A DNA stretch of 64,000 bases from a virus. Below are positions 39,302 to 45,271 of this stretch, one piece after another. A program made the translations under genes and the position numbers. The notes under the pieces were generated by a model. That model saw nothing but the letters and a program-made list of their open reading frames with translations, did no database searches and was not told the DNA's origin. The stretch is taken from IMG/VR virus record IMGVR_UViG_3300025000_000061, positions 1 to 64,000 of that record; one strand, 5' to 3'. The stretch's first letter is position 1, and the number at the start of each line of letters is the position of its first letter.

Positions 39302-39724
39302 TTGAAAATATTACATAATGCTCAGTGTTATAAGCAAGATAGGGAGTTGGATTGGAGAGGGTGGTGTCCGAAGAGGGGTGAGATTTATTTGTGTCAATTG
39401 GGTAATGAAGGTCTTATATATTCAGAGATTAAGGGGTATCGTCCCGTATTGGTTGTGTCAAATAACATAGCAAACAAACATAGTCCAGTAGTTTCTATTA
39501 TACCATTAACTTCTAGTCAAATAAAAAATAATAATATGCCTGTTCATGTTAAAGTAGGAGTAGAAGAAGGGTTACGAACTTCGAGTTTAATTTGTTGTGA
39601 GCAGACTAAAACCGTATCTAAAAATCGTATGTTCATAAATGGTAGTTTAACTAGAATTTGTAAATTGAGTAGTAAATCGATGTGTAAAGTGGACGAGGCA
39701 ATACGAATACAATTTGGATTGTAA
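39302..39724 (+). CDS. mazF: MazF/PemK-family endoribonuclease
   Basis: PKRGEIY, SEIKGYRPVLVVSNNIANKHSPVVSIIPLTS, HV, S.ICCEQ.KTVSK.R. Confidence 0.92.
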   Translation: MKILHNAQCYKQDRELDWRGWCPKRGEIYLCQLGNEGLIYSEIKGYRPVLVVSNNIANKHSPVVSIIPLTSSQIKNNNMPVHVKVGVEEGLRTSSLICCEQTKTVSKNRMFINGSLTRICKLSSKSMCKVDEAIRIQFGL

Positions 39725-39873
39725 ATAAATTGGGAATAGATTATAAATATAAATTATAATATATATTATCATATATTATAAAAGGGTGTGATGTCTTTGA
39801 TTGTGTAAAAATAAATTAAAAAGTTATTGTGTTTAAATTGTATCTATTAAAAAATAATATAAAAGGAGGATAT

Positions 39874-41412
39874 ATGTTAGTAAAAAATCAAAAAGTTAAA
39901 ATGAATTGGAGTGGAAGTAATAGAAAACATTATGAATTAAAAGGATATCCTTTTACTAATTATAATGATGAATTTGAAGTTAAAATAGAGGATTTAGCAC
40001 CAAAAAGTCAAAAATATGTTTTGATTAGATGTGATTATTGTGGGATACCTTTTTTGAGAAGGTATGTAAATCATAATACAAGAAAAGAGAAATATGGTAT
40101 AAATGATAAAGATTGTTGTGATGATTGTAGAGCATATAAAAGAGAAGAAACATGTTTAGATAAATATGGTGTTAAAAACGCTGCTCAGACAGAAGAAATA
40201 CAAAATAAAATAAAAAGAACAATTAAAGAAAAATATGGAGTAGAATATATTTCTCAATCAGAAGAAATTAAAAACAAAAAGAAACAAACTTGTTTAGATA
40301 AATATGGAGTAGAATATACCTTACAAGTGCCAGAAATTAGAGAAATAATTACAGAAACTAATATAAATAAATATAGATGTGAAAATCCATTTCAAGCAGA
40401 AGAAATTAAAGAAAAAATAAGACAAGTCAATATGGATAAATATGGAGTTGAATATGCTTCCCAATCTTTAGAAGTGAAAGAAAAAACCAAACAAACTAAT
40501 TTAATAAAATATGGGAAAGAATACTACTTACAAACAGATGAATACAAAGAAAAGATTAAACAAAATAACCTAGACAAATACGGAGTAGAATATTATTCAC
40601 AAACAGAAGAATATAAAAACAAATATAAGCAAACCTGTCAAAATAAATATGGTGTTGATAATGTTTCACAAGTTCCAGAAATTGCAGAAAAAATTTCACA
40701 ATCACGTACAAAAGAATTTAAAGATTTGACAAATATAAAATTTAACCATTTAACAGTAATTTCTTTAGTACCTGATAAAACAAATAAGCACCATGATAGG
40801 TATTGGCTATGCGAATGTGATTGTGAAAATAAAACTAGAAAGGAAATTTCAGAAAATCATTTAGTTAGAGGAAATATTAAAAGTTGTGGGTGTATACGAA
40901 AAGAATCATTAATTGAAAGATGGGAAGGTAAAACAAAAAAGGATATATATCCTTATTACAAAGAAATATATTGTACATATGATAGTATGAGAAAAAGATG
41001 TTATAATGAAAAACATGATAATTATAAAAGATATGGTGGTAGAGGAATAATTATTTGTGATGAATGGTTGAATGATTTTATGAATTTTTATAATTGGGCA
41101 ATAAAAAACGATTATAAAGAAGGATTAACTATTGAAAGAATTGATTATGATGGCAATTATGAACCTGATAACTGTAAATGGGCAACATGGGAAGAACAAA
41201 GTTATAATAAATCAAATACGTTATACATAGAAGTAGACAATGAAATGAAAACAGTTAAACAATGGTCTGATGAAACAGGGATACCTCAACATATAATATA
41301 TCAAAGATATGCCAGATATAAAAGAAAAGATAAAAAAGAATTAGAGTTATTAACTAAAGAAAAATTCTTTAAACCAGTTAGACAACTCAAAAGAAAGGGT
41401 GATGTTGTCTGA
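39874..41412 (+). CDS. homing endonuclease-like protein: Zn ribbon, KYG repeats, HNH-type C-terminus
   Basis: About 8 repeats of T.L.KYGVEY..Q.EE.K.K; YWLCECDC, KSCGC, MRKRC, YGGRGI, TIERID..GNYEPDNCKWAT..EQ..N; start moved to 39874 behind AGGAGG. Confidence 0.85.
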   Translation: MLVKNQKVKMNWSGSNRKHYELKGYPFTNYNDEFEVKIEDLAPKSQKYVLIRCDYCGIPFLRRYVNHNTRKEKYGINDKDCCDDCRAYKREETCLDKYGVKNAAQTEEIQNKIKRTIKEKYGVEYISQSEEIKNKKKQTCLDKYGVEYTLQVPEIREIITETNINKYRCENPFQAEEIKEKIRQVNMDKYGVEYASQSLEVKEKTKQTNLIKYGKEYYLQTDEYKEKIKQNNLDKYGVEYYSQTEEYKNKYKQTCQNKYGVDNVSQVPEIAEKISQSRTKEFKDLTNIKFNHLTVISLVPDKTNKHHDRYWLCECDCENKTRKEISENHLVRGNIKSCGCIRKESLIERWEGKTKKDIYPYYKEIYCTYDSMRKRCYNEKHDNYKRYGGRGIIICDEWLNDFMNFYNWAIKNDYKEGLTIERIDYDGNYEPDNCKWATWEEQSYNKSNTLYIEVDNEMKTVKQWSDETGIPQHIIYQRYARYKRKDKKELELLTKEKFFKPVRQLKRKGDVV

Positions 41413-42008
41413 TTGAATTTATTATAGGAGCAATTTTATATGCAAAATATAAAAAGAAATATAAATTAAAATACATATTTAAATACCCATACATATTTGC
41501 AATAATACCACCTTTATTATGTGCCTTACTATACATATTTATAGAAATATCAGTTTGGAATCAATGGTATTGGTTTTTACCATATCAACATATAATAAAA
41601 ACTACAACTTTGTTAAGTTATATACCTTTACTTTATATATATAATCTTTATGAAAATGATAATCAAAAATACATAAATAATAATATAATGAATGTAGTTA
41701 CTTCACCTATGTTTAAAGCAGGATTCTGCTTATGGTTAGGTTCGACATTAAATAAAATAGTTATAAATGCTAACAATGGTATGCCAGTTTTCCCTAGTAA
41801 TACATACTGGACTGGTTACGCCAAACCAGATTTATTTAATGATGGTATACATATATTAGGTAATGCTTATACAAAATTAATTCCTTTGTCAGACTGGATT
41901 GATATTTTTTACTCGGTGATTTCCCCAGGAGATATTTTAATTCGTATGTATGTTTTTTTAATTATATATTATGCTATAAAATATTCTAATAAATTATTAA
42001 TAAAATAA
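41409..42008 (+). CDS. DUF5317-family membrane protein (likely CTG start)
   Basis: Frame open from 41403; LIEFIIGAILYAK..., LN..VI.ANNGMPV, H.L, L.D.I, SPGD motifs; SD AAAGGGTG. Confidence 0.8.
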   Translation: MIEFIIGAILYAKYKKKYKLKYIFKYPYIFAIIPPLLCALLYIFIEISVWNQWYWFLPYQHIIKTTTLLSYIPLLYIYNLYENDNQKYINNNIMNVVTSPMFKAGFCLWLGSTLNKIVINANNGMPVFPSNTYWTGYAKPDLFNDGIHILGNAYTKLIPLSDWIDIFYSVISPGDILIRMYVFLIIYYAIKYSNKLLIK

Positions 42009-42048
42009 TAAAATAAATGTTGACACTTAAACAACTCTATGGTAATAT
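42002..42048 (+). promoter_or_regulatory. sigmaA promoter for sensor-agrD with upstream motif variant
   Basis: AAAATAATAAAATAA 42002-42016; TTGACA 42020-17-TGnTAATAT. Confidence 0.7.
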
Positions 42049-42080
42049 ATAAATAGAAAATTACTAAGGGAGTTGGTTAT

Positions 42081-42881
42081 GTGGAACAAAATATTATAAA
42101 TGCGATATTGAATTTTTTCACAATTAGTTTGTTCGAGGAGTTAGGTATAGTTTTACTAATTTTAATATTTTTAAAAAGATTTGATTTACTTGATAAATAT
42201 ATGTGGAGATGGAATATAAAATGGATAATTTTGCCTACAATTTTAACGTCATTCTCCATAAATATATTTATATACATAATACCAAATTTTATATTAAAAT
42301 TTTTTGTTTCTATTATTGTTTTATACTTTTCTATAAATTATATCTTAATTAAAACAGACCCATTAGATGAAAAAATAAAATGGTATAAAATATTAATCAG
42401 TATAATATTAAGCATAGTTATGATAACAAGTGCAGAAATAATATATTTACCAATAATGCTTCAATATGTTAATCAACCAATAGAAATATTGAATAATAAT
42501 ATGTTATTAAAATTTATAGTAAGTTTGCCAGCAAAAACATTTCAAGTGTTATTGATTTATTTCATGTATAAAAAACATAATCAAAGTGAAAAATATGTTT
42601 CTAATATTTTAAAAGATAGAATATTATCTTTAGTTACAATTAGTTTTACTGGTTTAATATTGTTTGCTTTAACATGTATAGTAAAAATTGTAATTAGTTC
42701 AGAAATGATTGGTAAATATTCAATACAAACTCAAATGATGATTAGTGTATTAATAACAATTGTACCAACAATACTAATATTTCTTTATATCATACCAATT
42801 AATTACCTATTATCACGATTATTCAGAATACAACAGAGTTATCAACAAATGTATGATGATGTTGATGATACTGATGTATAG
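42081..42881 (+). CDS. multi-pass membrane protein resembling an AgrC sensor domain, lacking the kinase domain
   Basis: About 7 hydrophobic segments, immediately upstream of agrD, no H/N/G boxes. Confidence 0.6.
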   Translation: MEQNIINAILNFFTISLFEELGIVLLILIFLKRFDLLDKYMWRWNIKWIILPTILTSFSINIFIYIIPNFILKFFVSIIVLYFSINYILIKTDPLDEKIKWYKILISIILSIVMITSAEIIYLPIMLQYVNQPIEILNNNMLLKFIVSLPAKTFQVLLIYFMYKKHNQSEKYVSNILKDRILSLVTISFTGLILFALTCIVKIVISSEMIGKYSIQTQMMISVLITIVPTILIFLYIIPINYLLSRLFRIQQSYQQMYDDVDDTDV

Positions 42882-42913: not shown

Positions 42914-43039
42914 ATGAAAAAATATACTCTTTTAGTCGTAGCTGGTTTTATTGCTTTAGTTGCTACTGCACTTACTAATTCCGTAGCATCTTTCATGGGA
43001 TTGAATCAACCTAAGAGTCCTTCTATGTTAGTAAAGTAA
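42914..43039 (+). CDS. agrD: cyclic lactone autoinducer peptide precursor (41 aa)
   Basis: MKKYTLLVVAGFIALVATALTNSVASFMGLNQPKSPSMLVK; SD AAAGGAGGTG; leader, S-X4 ring, xQPKxP tail. Confidence 0.9.
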   Translation: MKKYTLLVVAGFIALVATALTNSVASFMGLNQPKSPSMLVK

Positions 43040-43055
43040 TATGACTACATAGAAA

Positions 43056-43093
43056 ATTCTAAAGTAGAGTGTTTACTTCCTCTACTTTAGAAT
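43056..43093. terminator. 14-bp perfect stem-loop after agrD
   Basis: ATTCTAAAGTAGAG-N10-CTCTACTTTAGAAT. Confidence 0.75.
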
Positions 43094-43179: not shown

Positions 43180-44055
43180 ATGATGTTATTTAATAAAAAA
43201 GAAATTCTTAAAAAAGATAATCTTGTGGATGATAAATTTAAAAAAGAGATGGCATTTTTAGTATTTAAAGCAAAAGGTAGACGAAATATTGAACAATTCG
43301 TAAAAGACATGAAAATGTTTGATCCTACACCAATCGTTAATTTAATAAATAAAAATTATAATGAATTACCTGATAGAAAATTATTAAGGAAAATAGCCGA
43401 TAATAGTATGGGAATGGTTAATTTTAGGATATTATATGATCTCTGTGGTTACTCCGAGAGAGATCCTGAAGAAGATCGTAGTTGGATAAAATGGGTTCCA
43501 AGATGGGCAGAAGTTTATATGTGTGATCTAGGCATAGGAGAGGATTGTATTCAAGGAGGGAAAAGAAATGTATTAATAATTCAAAATAATAAAGGCAACC
43601 AACACTCACCGAATGTATCTATATTGCCAATATCCAGTAAATGTAAATTTAACCATATGCATATACTATTAGAAAAAGAATTGGGTTTTGAAAGGGATAG
43701 TTACGCATTGTCAGAAATGCCATTAACTGTAAGTAAGAGGAGGTTCTTTTATAATACAGTACCTTATAAAATTACAACACTTTCAGATTTTAAAATGAAA
43801 GAAATACAGGTATGTCTTGAGAAACAATTTGGATTTTTACCACTTTATTTTGACGTAGAACATGCATTTGAACTAGTCAGACATATAAAAAATCTAGAAC
43901 AAAATATAAAAATCAAAAAATCACATAATTTAGTAGATATTATGGAAGATAAATTAAATGACCTAAAAGAATACTGTTCAAAATACAAAAAGAATTATCA
44001 ACATTACCTACAAGAATACGATAGAATCAATAACTATGGTATTCAAGCAATATAG
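43180..44055 (+). CDS. extended MazF/PemK protein with N-terminal Xre-HTH-like region and C-terminal helical extension
   Basis: KAKGRRNIEQF..P..KLLRKIA..LYDLCGY, then PRWAEVYMCDLG..IQGGKRNVLIIQNNKGNQHSPNVSILPISS. Confidence 0.8.
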   Translation: MMLFNKKEILKKDNLVDDKFKKEMAFLVFKAKGRRNIEQFVKDMKMFDPTPIVNLINKNYNELPDRKLLRKIADNSMGMVNFRILYDLCGYSERDPEEDRSWIKWVPRWAEVYMCDLGIGEDCIQGGKRNVLIIQNNKGNQHSPNVSILPISSKCKFNHMHILLEKELGFERDSYALSEMPLTVSKRRFFYNTVPYKITTLSDFKMKEIQVCLEKQFGFLPLYFDVEHAFELVRHIKNLEQNIKIKKSHNLVDIMEDKLNDLKEYCSKYKKNYQHYLQEYDRINNYGIQAI

Positions 44056-44126: not shown

Positions 44127-44600
44127 ATGATTAACGAACACAAATTAAAGTATCTATGCAACAAATATGGTATTAATTATCAAGTATTTCATGCAACAGA
44201 TACCATATTAATAGATGCAAAATTAGATATATGGGAGGTGAAATATTATGAAGAAATACAAAAAAAATTAAATTTATTATACAATAAACAAAAAGAAATT
44301 CAATTGCAATTATTATCTCCTGTATTAGATGAACCAATTAAGAAAAAATTATTATATGAATATGAAAAAATAAACAAAAAAATAAAAGAAACAAAACCAT
44401 ATTATTTACTTCATAAAAATAAATCTGATAATAAATTTAGCAATCAGCACACACAAGGATGGAAGAAAAATTTATATCAAGTAATAACTTTTATATTAGC
44501 ACATAAAAGAGTTTTATATGGCATCCAATTAGGAAAGCCATATATACATAAGCACAATATTAAAATAAATAAGAAGGGAAAAGTATGTTTAAATACATAA
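44127..44600 (+). CDS. hypothetical protein overlapping the agrB start
   Basis: 157-aa ORF with SD. Confidence 0.7.
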   Translation: MINEHKLKYLCNKYGINYQVFHATDTILIDAKLDIWEVKYYEEIQKKLNLLYNKQKEIQLQLLSPVLDEPIKKKLLYEYEKINKKIKETKPYYLLHKNKSDNKFSNQHTQGWKKNLYQVITFILAHKRVLYGIQLGKPYIHKHNIKINKKGKVCLNT

Positions 44601-45271
44601 GATACCTATTAACATTCCGATATATCAAACTAATATCCTATATATCTGCTAAATATCTTCATAATAAAATACCTGTATTCCCACTAATAGATTCAAAAGT
44701 TTTATTAAAATTTTTACCAAAAAATATGTTAGATTTATTTGAAAATTTACATCAACAATCTAAATTAAAACCATATAAACTTAAATATGTTTATTACTAC
44801 GGTTGTCAAATCATCATAGGAGGCATTAACAAATTCCTACTCTTAATCACACTAGGCATCCTACTCAACATCCTCCCATATCTCATACTAACAACAATAT
44901 CATTCGTATCATTGCGAATTTGGTCTGGAGGGTTACATTTTGACTCTTACTCTAAGTGTGCCTACATTTCACTCTTATCATTTACAATCATGGCACTATT
45001 AGCAAAATACATCTACATATCAACCATACCTACTATATTAATATTCTTAATTGTCTTAATTTTAATTCTATTATATGCACCAGTAGAGCATCCCAACAGA
45101 CCAATAAAAAATAACGAAAAAGTTAAATTTAAATTAATTTCAATTTTCTCATTGTTAATATTACTATTAGTTATTTTATGCGTAAATAATATTATTATCT
45201 GTAATTCTATAGTGTTTGGAGTGCTATTAGCAGGTATAATTATGTTGCCTATTATAAACAAACTGAAATAG
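44585..45271 (+). CDS. agrB: AgrB-family autoinducer-processing peptidase
   Basis: YG.QII, LR..SGGLH....C (catalytic His/Cys), YAPVEHPNRPI, several TM segments. Confidence 0.93.
   Translation: MFKYIRYLLTFRYIKLISYISAKYLHNKIPVFPLIDSKVLLKFLPKNMLDLFENLHQQSKLKPYKLKYVYYYGCQIIIGGINKFLLLITLGILLNILPYLILTTISFVSLRIWSGGLHFDSYSKCAYISLLSFTIMALLAKYIYISTIPTILIFLIVLILILLYAPVEHPNRPIKNNEKVKFKLISIFSLLILLLVILCVNNIIICNSIVFGVLLAGIIMLPIINKLK

Follow-up and report, generated by a model that had tools for sequence, protein, structure and literature searches.

The locus and its sensor gene

The DNA analysed here, called the window throughout, is the first 64 kb of IMG/VR virus record IMGVR_UViG_3300025000_000061, which is 151,782 bases long and is estimated to be 82% complete. 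It comes from a large, uncultured, low-GC phage (GC about 25%) with nearly all of its genes on the plus strand. In agr signalling a peptide acts on the kinase AgrC, which in turn acts on AgrA. The subject of this report is a gene at 42081..42881 (+), directly upstream of agrD, for a protein of 266 amino acids with seven membrane helices and a cytoplasmic tail (QQSYQQMYDDVDDTDV). Comparison of sequence profiles shows this protein to be genuinely related to the part of AgrC that senses the peptide; the kinase part is missing.

The open reading frame is complete, with a GTG start at 42081 and a TAG stop at 42879-42881. A ribosome-binding site, AAGGGAG (42066..42072, +), can be read from the sequence 8 nt ahead of the GTG. 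An ATG at 42079 is in a different frame and runs into a stop after 6 codons. Homologues of the sensor start at the same residue (M-x-Q-N-I), and this common N-terminus supports the GTG as the start. The AlphaFold2 model, made from an alignment of 13 sequences, consists of seven long helices (pLDDT 76, pTM 0.69). Counted from the sequence, the loops on one side of the membrane hold 16 Lys and Arg residues and those on the other side 3, so that by the positive-inside rule the N-terminus is predicted to be outside and the C-terminus inside. AgrC is also a seven-helix protein, and the predicted topology matches it. The C-terminal residues of the sensor are MYDDVDDTDV. A first-pass annotation, made from the sequence alone, had described a 266-residue frame with about seven helices, an acidic tail and a clean stop, and all of these were confirmed by the reading frame, the model and the sequence. 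That annotation had also given the gene its own promoter. A sigma-70-like candidate is indeed present at 42020..42048 (+), as a consensus match only (TTGACA-17-TAATAT with an upstream TG), but such sites are not enriched in this AT-rich region, 71 being observed where 65 are expected from shuffled sequence.

The sensor ends at residue 266, and neither an H-box or DHp region nor an ATPase domain was found in it with Pfam or NCBIfam. No HATPase_c_5, LytTR or Response_reg domain was detected in any of the six frames of the 82% complete record, with E values up to 1 being considered for LytTR and Response_reg. The absence of a kinase remnant ahead of agrD, as claimed in the first-pass annotation, holds as well. 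Only 32 nt separate the sensor stop from the agrD ATG at 42914, and there is no room for a remnant because the agrD ribosome-binding site (GGAGG) and its ATG follow directly after the stop.

A kinase is lacking throughout the family. A search without length limit of 1.84 billion representatives gave 74 clusters (E <= 1e-3, 50% identity), all of 56-320 aa, with full-length members of 250-320 aa. Word-indexed searches with the sensor and with a profile of 57 sequences returned only proteins of 186-361 aa (259-361 aa for the matches to the profile), all without a Pfam domain. In a sample of 399 genomes from the class to which Ruminiclostridium belongs, a family match was present in 11, in open frames of 150-343 aa. 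Relatives with a full kinase, which by the first-pass annotation would have spoken against its reading and for a recent truncation, were not found in the cluster, profile or genome searches. A recently truncated AgrC, surviving as a pseudogene remnant, would account for the missing kinase and for nothing further. It is almost certainly the wrong explanation, given that all relatives in these searches are kinase-less, that a clean stop is followed directly by agrD, and that the motif in the tail is conserved.

Neither Pfam nor NCBIfam has a family for the sensor or for the 57 relatives, and a phage collection searched by DNA and by protein gave no match to the sensor. Members of the family have 230-361 aa, the motif L-N-x-x-x-V-S-I-P-E-E in TM1 (the first membrane helix), a Glu in TM4, S-x-P at the start of TM5 and a position directly upstream of agrD; E19, D38 and E119 are invariant polar residues. 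In the studied sensor the TM1 motif reads I-S-L-F-E-E against a family consensus of VSIPEE, the E being retained and the P replaced by F. Two subfamilies can be told apart. The phage subfamily (260-287 aa) has a conserved tail, QQ-S/T-Y-Q/E-N, with acidic residues after the motif. The bacterial subfamily (about 315 aa) is found in Ruminiclostridium, Anaerobacterium and many metagenome-assembled genomes of Bacillota, and its tail is a helical, roughly neutral extension of about 60 residues. Over their last 15 residues, proteins of the phage type have a mean net charge of -3.5 and those of the bacterial type one of -0.5.

Two other assignments were tried and rejected. The bacterial extension was compared with DHp regions as a possible degenerate form and gave 0.6%, equal to the reversed control. 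A protease of the CPBP or MroQ type was suggested by the EE motif; the motifs E-E-x-x-x-R, F-x-x-x-H and H-x-x-x-N/D are absent, there being no R five residues past the EE, no invariant His in the alignments and no CPBP among the Pfam matches.

Relationship to AgrC sensors

A PDB profile search with the sensor gave noise only (best match RibU, E 0.056), and nothing meaningful came from Foldseek and VIA-align searches with the model, where the highest Z, 8.2, fell on a soluble helical domain. Since Pfam, NCBIfam and the sequence and structure searches of the PDB gave nothing, comparison of profiles was used. The reference set was drawn from HATPase_c_5 kinases in four genomes that carry the family, and the group among them with a weak signal was extended to 18 full-length relatives from 300 genomes. 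The two of these that were checked with Pfam begin with some 225 aa of membrane region, and SPOB_a and HATPase_c come next. The reference kinases sit in loci of the order agrB-agrD-kinase or agrD-kinase-agrB, and the 18 clostridial proteins are genuine AgrC proteins. A locus of the layout agrD-agrC-agrB has been described for Clostridium autoethanogenum (PMC8748961).

In HHalign the family profile matched the sensor region of the 18 kinases at 94.4% (P 8.7e-8, 139 columns) and the full-length kinases at 95.3% (P 2.2e-8, 272 columns). The full-length alignment is colinear, and extends from TM1 to just before the H-box (K-H-D-F-x-N-H-L). The reversed alignment gave 0.6%, 20 column shuffles gave at most 0.7%, and the profiles of AgrB and DUF5317 at most 0.2%; with a block-shuffled alignment local matches only remained. 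Other HPK10 sensor groups from the same genomes reached at most 6% against the family profile. At the level of these profiles, the similarity is specific to particular AgrC lineages and is not a property of all HPK10 sensors. In the reciprocal direction, a hidden Markov model (HMM) of the AgrC sensors was run against 6,615 open reading frames and proteins, and family members appeared in the top 29 ranks (best E 1.2e-5). The description AgrC-like in the first-pass annotation is thus borne out, by HHalign values of 94-98% with clean controls and by the reciprocal search.

A bridging form is provided by AgrC proteins that are naturally split. These were found in genomes of Clostridia, at loci L078 (992-2957), L079 (114-2095), L080 (815-2796), L082 (807-2788) and L085 (513-1936). 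The first gene encodes a five-helix protein of 160-172 aa in which the motif SIPE(A/T)F occurs. Abutting or overlapping this gene is the second, whose product (282-311 aa) combines two helices and an ATPase domain with an H-box of the form R-H-D-F-N-N-H or R-H-E-Y-N-R-H. AgrB is encoded next in L078, L079, L080 and L082. The family HMM matched the five-helix pieces with E values of 2e-9 to 4e-7. HHalign gave 98.0% (P 2.7e-13, over TM1-TM5) for the whole family and 97.5% for the bacterial subfamily against these pieces, and 97.2% for the pieces against intact AgrC sensors. The split loci show that the sensor can function apart from the kinase, on a chain of its own. The split AgrC and the sensor family have the TM1 SIPE motif in common, and in both the sensor module is a polypeptide of its own. 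In split AgrC the kinase gene abuts the sensor piece, whereas the studied sensor retains TM6 and TM7, and its surroundings are free of kinase genes.

The split form also lends itself to another explanation, namely that the sensor detects the peptide but passes the signal on in trans, to a membrane kinase that belongs to the host. The two would touch within the membrane, much as the five-helix pieces of split AgrC must do with their two-helix kinases. The five split loci show a sensor of this type working as a separate polypeptide, and the clostridial genomes that carry the family have many HPK10-type kinases. However, the studied sensor already has the equivalents of TM6 and TM7, no gene for a two-helix kinase was found in the phage record, and of some 110 loci only 3 have a kinase catalytic domain less than about 5 kb from the family gene. 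The conserved cytoplasmic tail would also be left without a role. We consider signalling in trans rather unlikely.

The similarity to AgrC, a receptor histidine kinase of class HPK10 in the agr quorum sensing of staphylococci and clostridia, comprises a homologous polytopic module that is colinear from TM1 to TM7 and a linkage to agrD and agrB. The studied sensor departs from AgrC in having neither the DHp helix with its phospho-accepting His nor an ATPase domain, and AgrA is missing from the phage. The order at the phage locus is sensor then agrD. About where the alignment places the residues before the H-box of AgrC, the sensor has its short, conserved acidic tail.

Linkage to agrD and the peptide ring

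The agrD gene at 42914..43039 (+) has 41 codons. Its predicted product contains a serine-lactone ring, S-F-M-G-L, followed by N-Q-P-K-S-P, and its match to TIGR04223 is weak and below the cut-off. A gene of this type was defined by C/S-x4 and then x-Q-P-K/R-x-P. By that definition, 33 of 40 family genes, from 31 genome and 3 phage loci, have an AgrD-type gene of 38-52 codons within about 40 nt downstream. In 16 further viral and 58 metagenome loci (some contigs are in both sets), agrD lies within 80 nt downstream of every one of the 62 first-copy genes. In both sets, every AgrD peptide of the phage type carries Ser where the ring is formed (A/N/H-S-x4, then N/H/Y/S-Q/E-P), so that a lactone is predicted. 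Those of the bacterial type, in the set of 31 genome loci, mostly have Cys there (K-P-A-C-x4). About half of the bacterial loci have agrB immediately ahead of the sensor, and genomes with 'orphan' sensor-agrD pairs have 2-4 AgrB genes elsewhere.

Co-variation of the sensor with the ring was determined in 43 non-identical phage-type loci, by comparing pairwise protein identity with the similarity of the AgrD rings. The correlation with ring similarity was highest for the sensor (r 0.71), followed by DUF5317 (0.59), AgrB (0.48), a fusion of an N-terminal helix-turn-helix domain to MazF, here called HTH-MazF (0.46), and a DGQHR protein (0.20). The partial Mantel r for the sensor was 0.57, 0.58 and 0.51 when HTH-MazF, DUF5317 and AgrB, respectively, were controlled for (p 0.0005), and that of the neighbours with the sensor as control was 0.08-0.20. 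Taken in windows of 20 residues, the ring correlation was 0.42-0.64 across the sensor; it was slightly higher in TM4-loop-TM5 and in TM6, which is not decisive. The AgrC sensor of staphylococci likewise co-varies with the peptide ring across specificity groups. A role as receptor is supported by these comparisons, as it fits both the position of the sensor upstream of agrD and the co-variation with the ring.

In some phage-type modules a second sensor paralogue was seen downstream of agrB (L004 8821-9684, L104, L107-L110, L119, L129, L133, L138 and L148). These second copies have an acidic tail, which is often longer, and in 11 of 11 there is no adjoining agrD. In L148 a second HTH-MazF gene follows the second sensor.

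The coupling to agrD and the co-variation with the ring would be expected of a peptide-specific partner in processing or export as well, and the sensor might therefore be a factor for biogenesis, export or self-protection and not a receptor. As such it would bind AgrD or the processed peptide, so as to assist in removing the leader or exporting the peptide or to shield the producer. The enzyme that removes the AgrD leader in systems of the clostridial type is not known; in Staphylococcus aureus it is reported to be the membrane protease MroQ (bioRxiv 10.1101/516906). Such a function is distinctly unlikely for the studied protein. Its homology is to the AgrC sensing module and not to a protease or transporter, it has no conserved catalytic set of His, Cys or Ser, canonical agrB-agrD-kinase loci function without a protein of this kind, and the second paralogues of some phages have no agrD beside them.

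The first-pass annotation had also offered the possibility of a decoy for the autoinducing peptide of the host. A sponge of this kind, silencing or eavesdropping on the host without an output of its own, would explain a sensor that has no output domain, and the agrD-less second paralogues (that of L004 and those of the 10 other loci) could listen to foreign peptides. The first copy, however, invariably has an agrD of the phage itself as its neighbour, with which it co-varies, and the conserved motif in the cytoplasmic tail argues for a function inside the cell. A membrane protein would also be an inefficient means of titrating a diffusible extracellular peptide stoichiometrically. On these grounds the decoy is very unlikely.

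Neighbouring genes and a possible output

The sensor and agrD lie within a module whose order is nearly invariant among the phage-type loci: MazF, an inserted gene in some cases, DUF5317, sensor, agrD, HTH-MazF, agrB, in some cases a second sensor, and the DGQHR protein. It is situated just upstream of repressor-like genes. At its upstream edge in the window is a stand-alone MazF/PemK toxin homologue of 140 aa (39302..39724, +; E 2.8e-24). A DUF7487 protein of 527 aa, identified with Pfam, follows at 39829..41412 (+), between MazF and DUF5317. In relatives the MazF and DUF5317 genes are adjacent (L100, L101, L111, L113 and L127) or 1.3-2 kb apart, and because of this varying distance the position of DUF7487 looks like a variable insertion site.

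The DUF5317 membrane protein (41409..42008, +; Pfam) is encoded directly 5' of the sensor in every module of the phage type. Its frame extends for a further 67 open codons ahead of the TTG that had been listed, and the gene probably begins at a CTG (41409) which overlaps the stop codon of the preceding gene (CTGA); in the L003 homologue a TTG stands at that place. D165, S172, G174, D175 and R179 are invariant across 32 phage homologues. The idea that DUF5317 is a GxGD-type protease was unsupported; its model was good (pLDDT 84) but had no match in Foldseek, and Z in VIA-align did not exceed 5.3.

Directly 3' of agrD there is an RNA hairpin of 14-15 bp at 43056..43093 (+), with a folding energy of -17.7 kcal/mol and a z score of -5.25; none of 200 shuffled sequences was as stable. 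It has no U tract. An A-rich tract follows it instead, and for that reason it is not a canonical intrinsic terminator. It probably either forms the 3' end of a transcript of sensor and agrD or stabilises that transcript, and its position suggests that these two genes form one transcript.

HTH-MazF (43180..44055, +) has 291 aa, with a match to PemK_toxin at residues 111-216 (E 1.4e-14). Its gene lies between agrD and agrB in all phage-type modules. AgrB, the peptidase and cyclase, has 228 aa (44585..45271, +; PF04647, E 7.4e-37); its gene is 1.7 kb downstream of the sensor and is separated from that of HTH-MazF by a frame of 157 aa.

These results suggest how the sensor may work. It would be co-transcribed with agrD, and the phage AgrB would convert AgrD into a serine-lactone autoinducing peptide, which would bind the outer face of the sensor. 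Since the sensor cannot phosphorylate anything, the signal would pass by a conformational change, through TM7 and into the cytoplasmic tail with its QQ-S/T-Y-x-N motif and subsequent acidic residues. The tail would then hold or release a partner in the cytoplasm. HTH-MazF, encoded after agrD, is the candidate for this partner, and its assignment is the least certain of the steps. A partner of that type would link the density of the phage peptide to a ribonuclease or regulator beside the repressor-like genes of the phage.

The sensor probably reads a cyclic-peptide signal by an undescribed route that does not involve phosphorylation. That it is, in particular, a free-standing seven-helix AgrC sensing module which reads the phage peptide, and whose tail holds or releases a cytoplasmic partner, is on balance the explanation that we favour. 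With regard to the partner, the simplest assumption is that the C-terminal part, in the cytoplasm, would contact a soluble protein, for which HTH-MazF is the best candidate encoded by the phage. The first-pass annotation had suggested a receptor that signals by binding or releasing a partner, with an acidic tail that could bind a MazF as an antitoxin does; in an antitoxin of the MazE type, an acidic C-terminal segment occupies the RNA groove of the MazF dimer. The support for such a contact is indirect. Wherever flanks are available, genes of the acidic-tail subfamily have DUF5317 before them and HTH-MazF after them, and both the acidic tail and HTH-MazF are missing from the bacterial subfamily. 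Co-folding of the sensor with two copies of HTH-MazF gave a score of 0.30 against a mark of 0.32, and weighs neither way.

Several observations count against a peptide receptor that acts through such a partner. The sensor model had no match among PDB structures, and no AgrC-type membrane sensor was found among the solved structures searched by sequence. The studied sensor alone has an E value of 0.086 against the AgrC-sensor HMM, the homology resting on the profiles. The sensor adjoins agrD, and linkage could supply part of the co-variation with the ring; linkage alone is nevertheless insufficient, because HTH-MazF is equally close to agrD and co-varies little. Finally, MazF is missing from the bacterial members, whose tail, about 60 aa long and roughly neutral, is of another kind; an output based on MazF therefore cannot be the ancestral or general mechanism.

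A more far-reaching proposal joins all of these elements into a branch of agr that is free of phosphorylation. The acidic tail of the peptide-bound sensor would directly hold or release HTH-MazF, the density of the phage population would set the choice between lysis and lysogeny, and the bacterial members would be the missing receptors of 'orphan' agrBD genes in some Clostridia. Taken as a whole this is speculative, and we think it improbable in its full form. To our knowledge, many Firmicutes and some phages have agrB and agrD without an identified receptor. The kinase-less sensor family offers a concrete receptor candidate for such loci, and it implies an output by protein contact rather than phosphotransfer, which is so far uncharacterised.

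Two phage systems invite comparison. AimR, the receptor of the arbitrium system, is a cytoplasmic TPR protein that binds a linear peptide taken up by the cell. In the studied system the proteins are unrelated to those of arbitrium, the signal is a cyclic peptide predicted to be sensed at the cell membrane, and the phage has MazF homologues of its own. The arbitrium system (AimR-AimP-AimX) of Bacillus phage phi3T is reported to act through the MazE-MazF of the host (PMC10769878), a precedent for joining peptide communication to MazF. The resemblance, a functional one only, is that communication by a phage peptide occurs together with a MazF ribonuclease near lysis-lysogeny genes. The studied system may be a second, independent invention of peptide-guided control of lysis and lysogeny beside arbitrium. 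The Clostridioides difficile phage phiCDHM1 carries an agr3 locus of agrD, agrB and agrC, reportedly with a complete AgrC kinase (Hargreaves et al. 2014, PMC3901668). Both phages carry Agr-type peptide-signalling genes and are phages of low-GC anaerobes. Compared with the agr3 locus, the receptor of the studied phage has no kinase and its cassette adds DUF5317 and two MazF homologues.

In about half of the bacterial loci, a gene of the XRE family (HTH_3) for a protein of 117-141 aa converges on agrD, as in L005 (7282-7644, -), L007 (7319-7672, -), L015 (7144-7560, -) and about 12 more. It is seen chiefly where agrB is directly upstream, and the four genes, in the order agrB-sensor-agrD-HTH, then form a unit that includes neither a kinase nor AgrA. 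Comparison of the N-terminal domain of HTH-MazF with these convergent XRE regulators gave 1.6%, and homology between them was not found. If the output of the sensor were direct control of MazF or of an HTH protein, it would be a new mode of signalling. In the literature, no description of a kinase-less AgrC-type protein and no mention of DUF5317 was found. Split AgrC as a bridging form and the agrB-sensor-agrD-XRE layout of the bacterial loci are both results of the present analysis. Bacterial sensor-agrD pairs can also be repeated in tandem. L020 (5918-8360) has two pairs whose rings differ by one residue, L032 (4639-7974) has three sensors, and L018 (5010-6957) has two that overlap.

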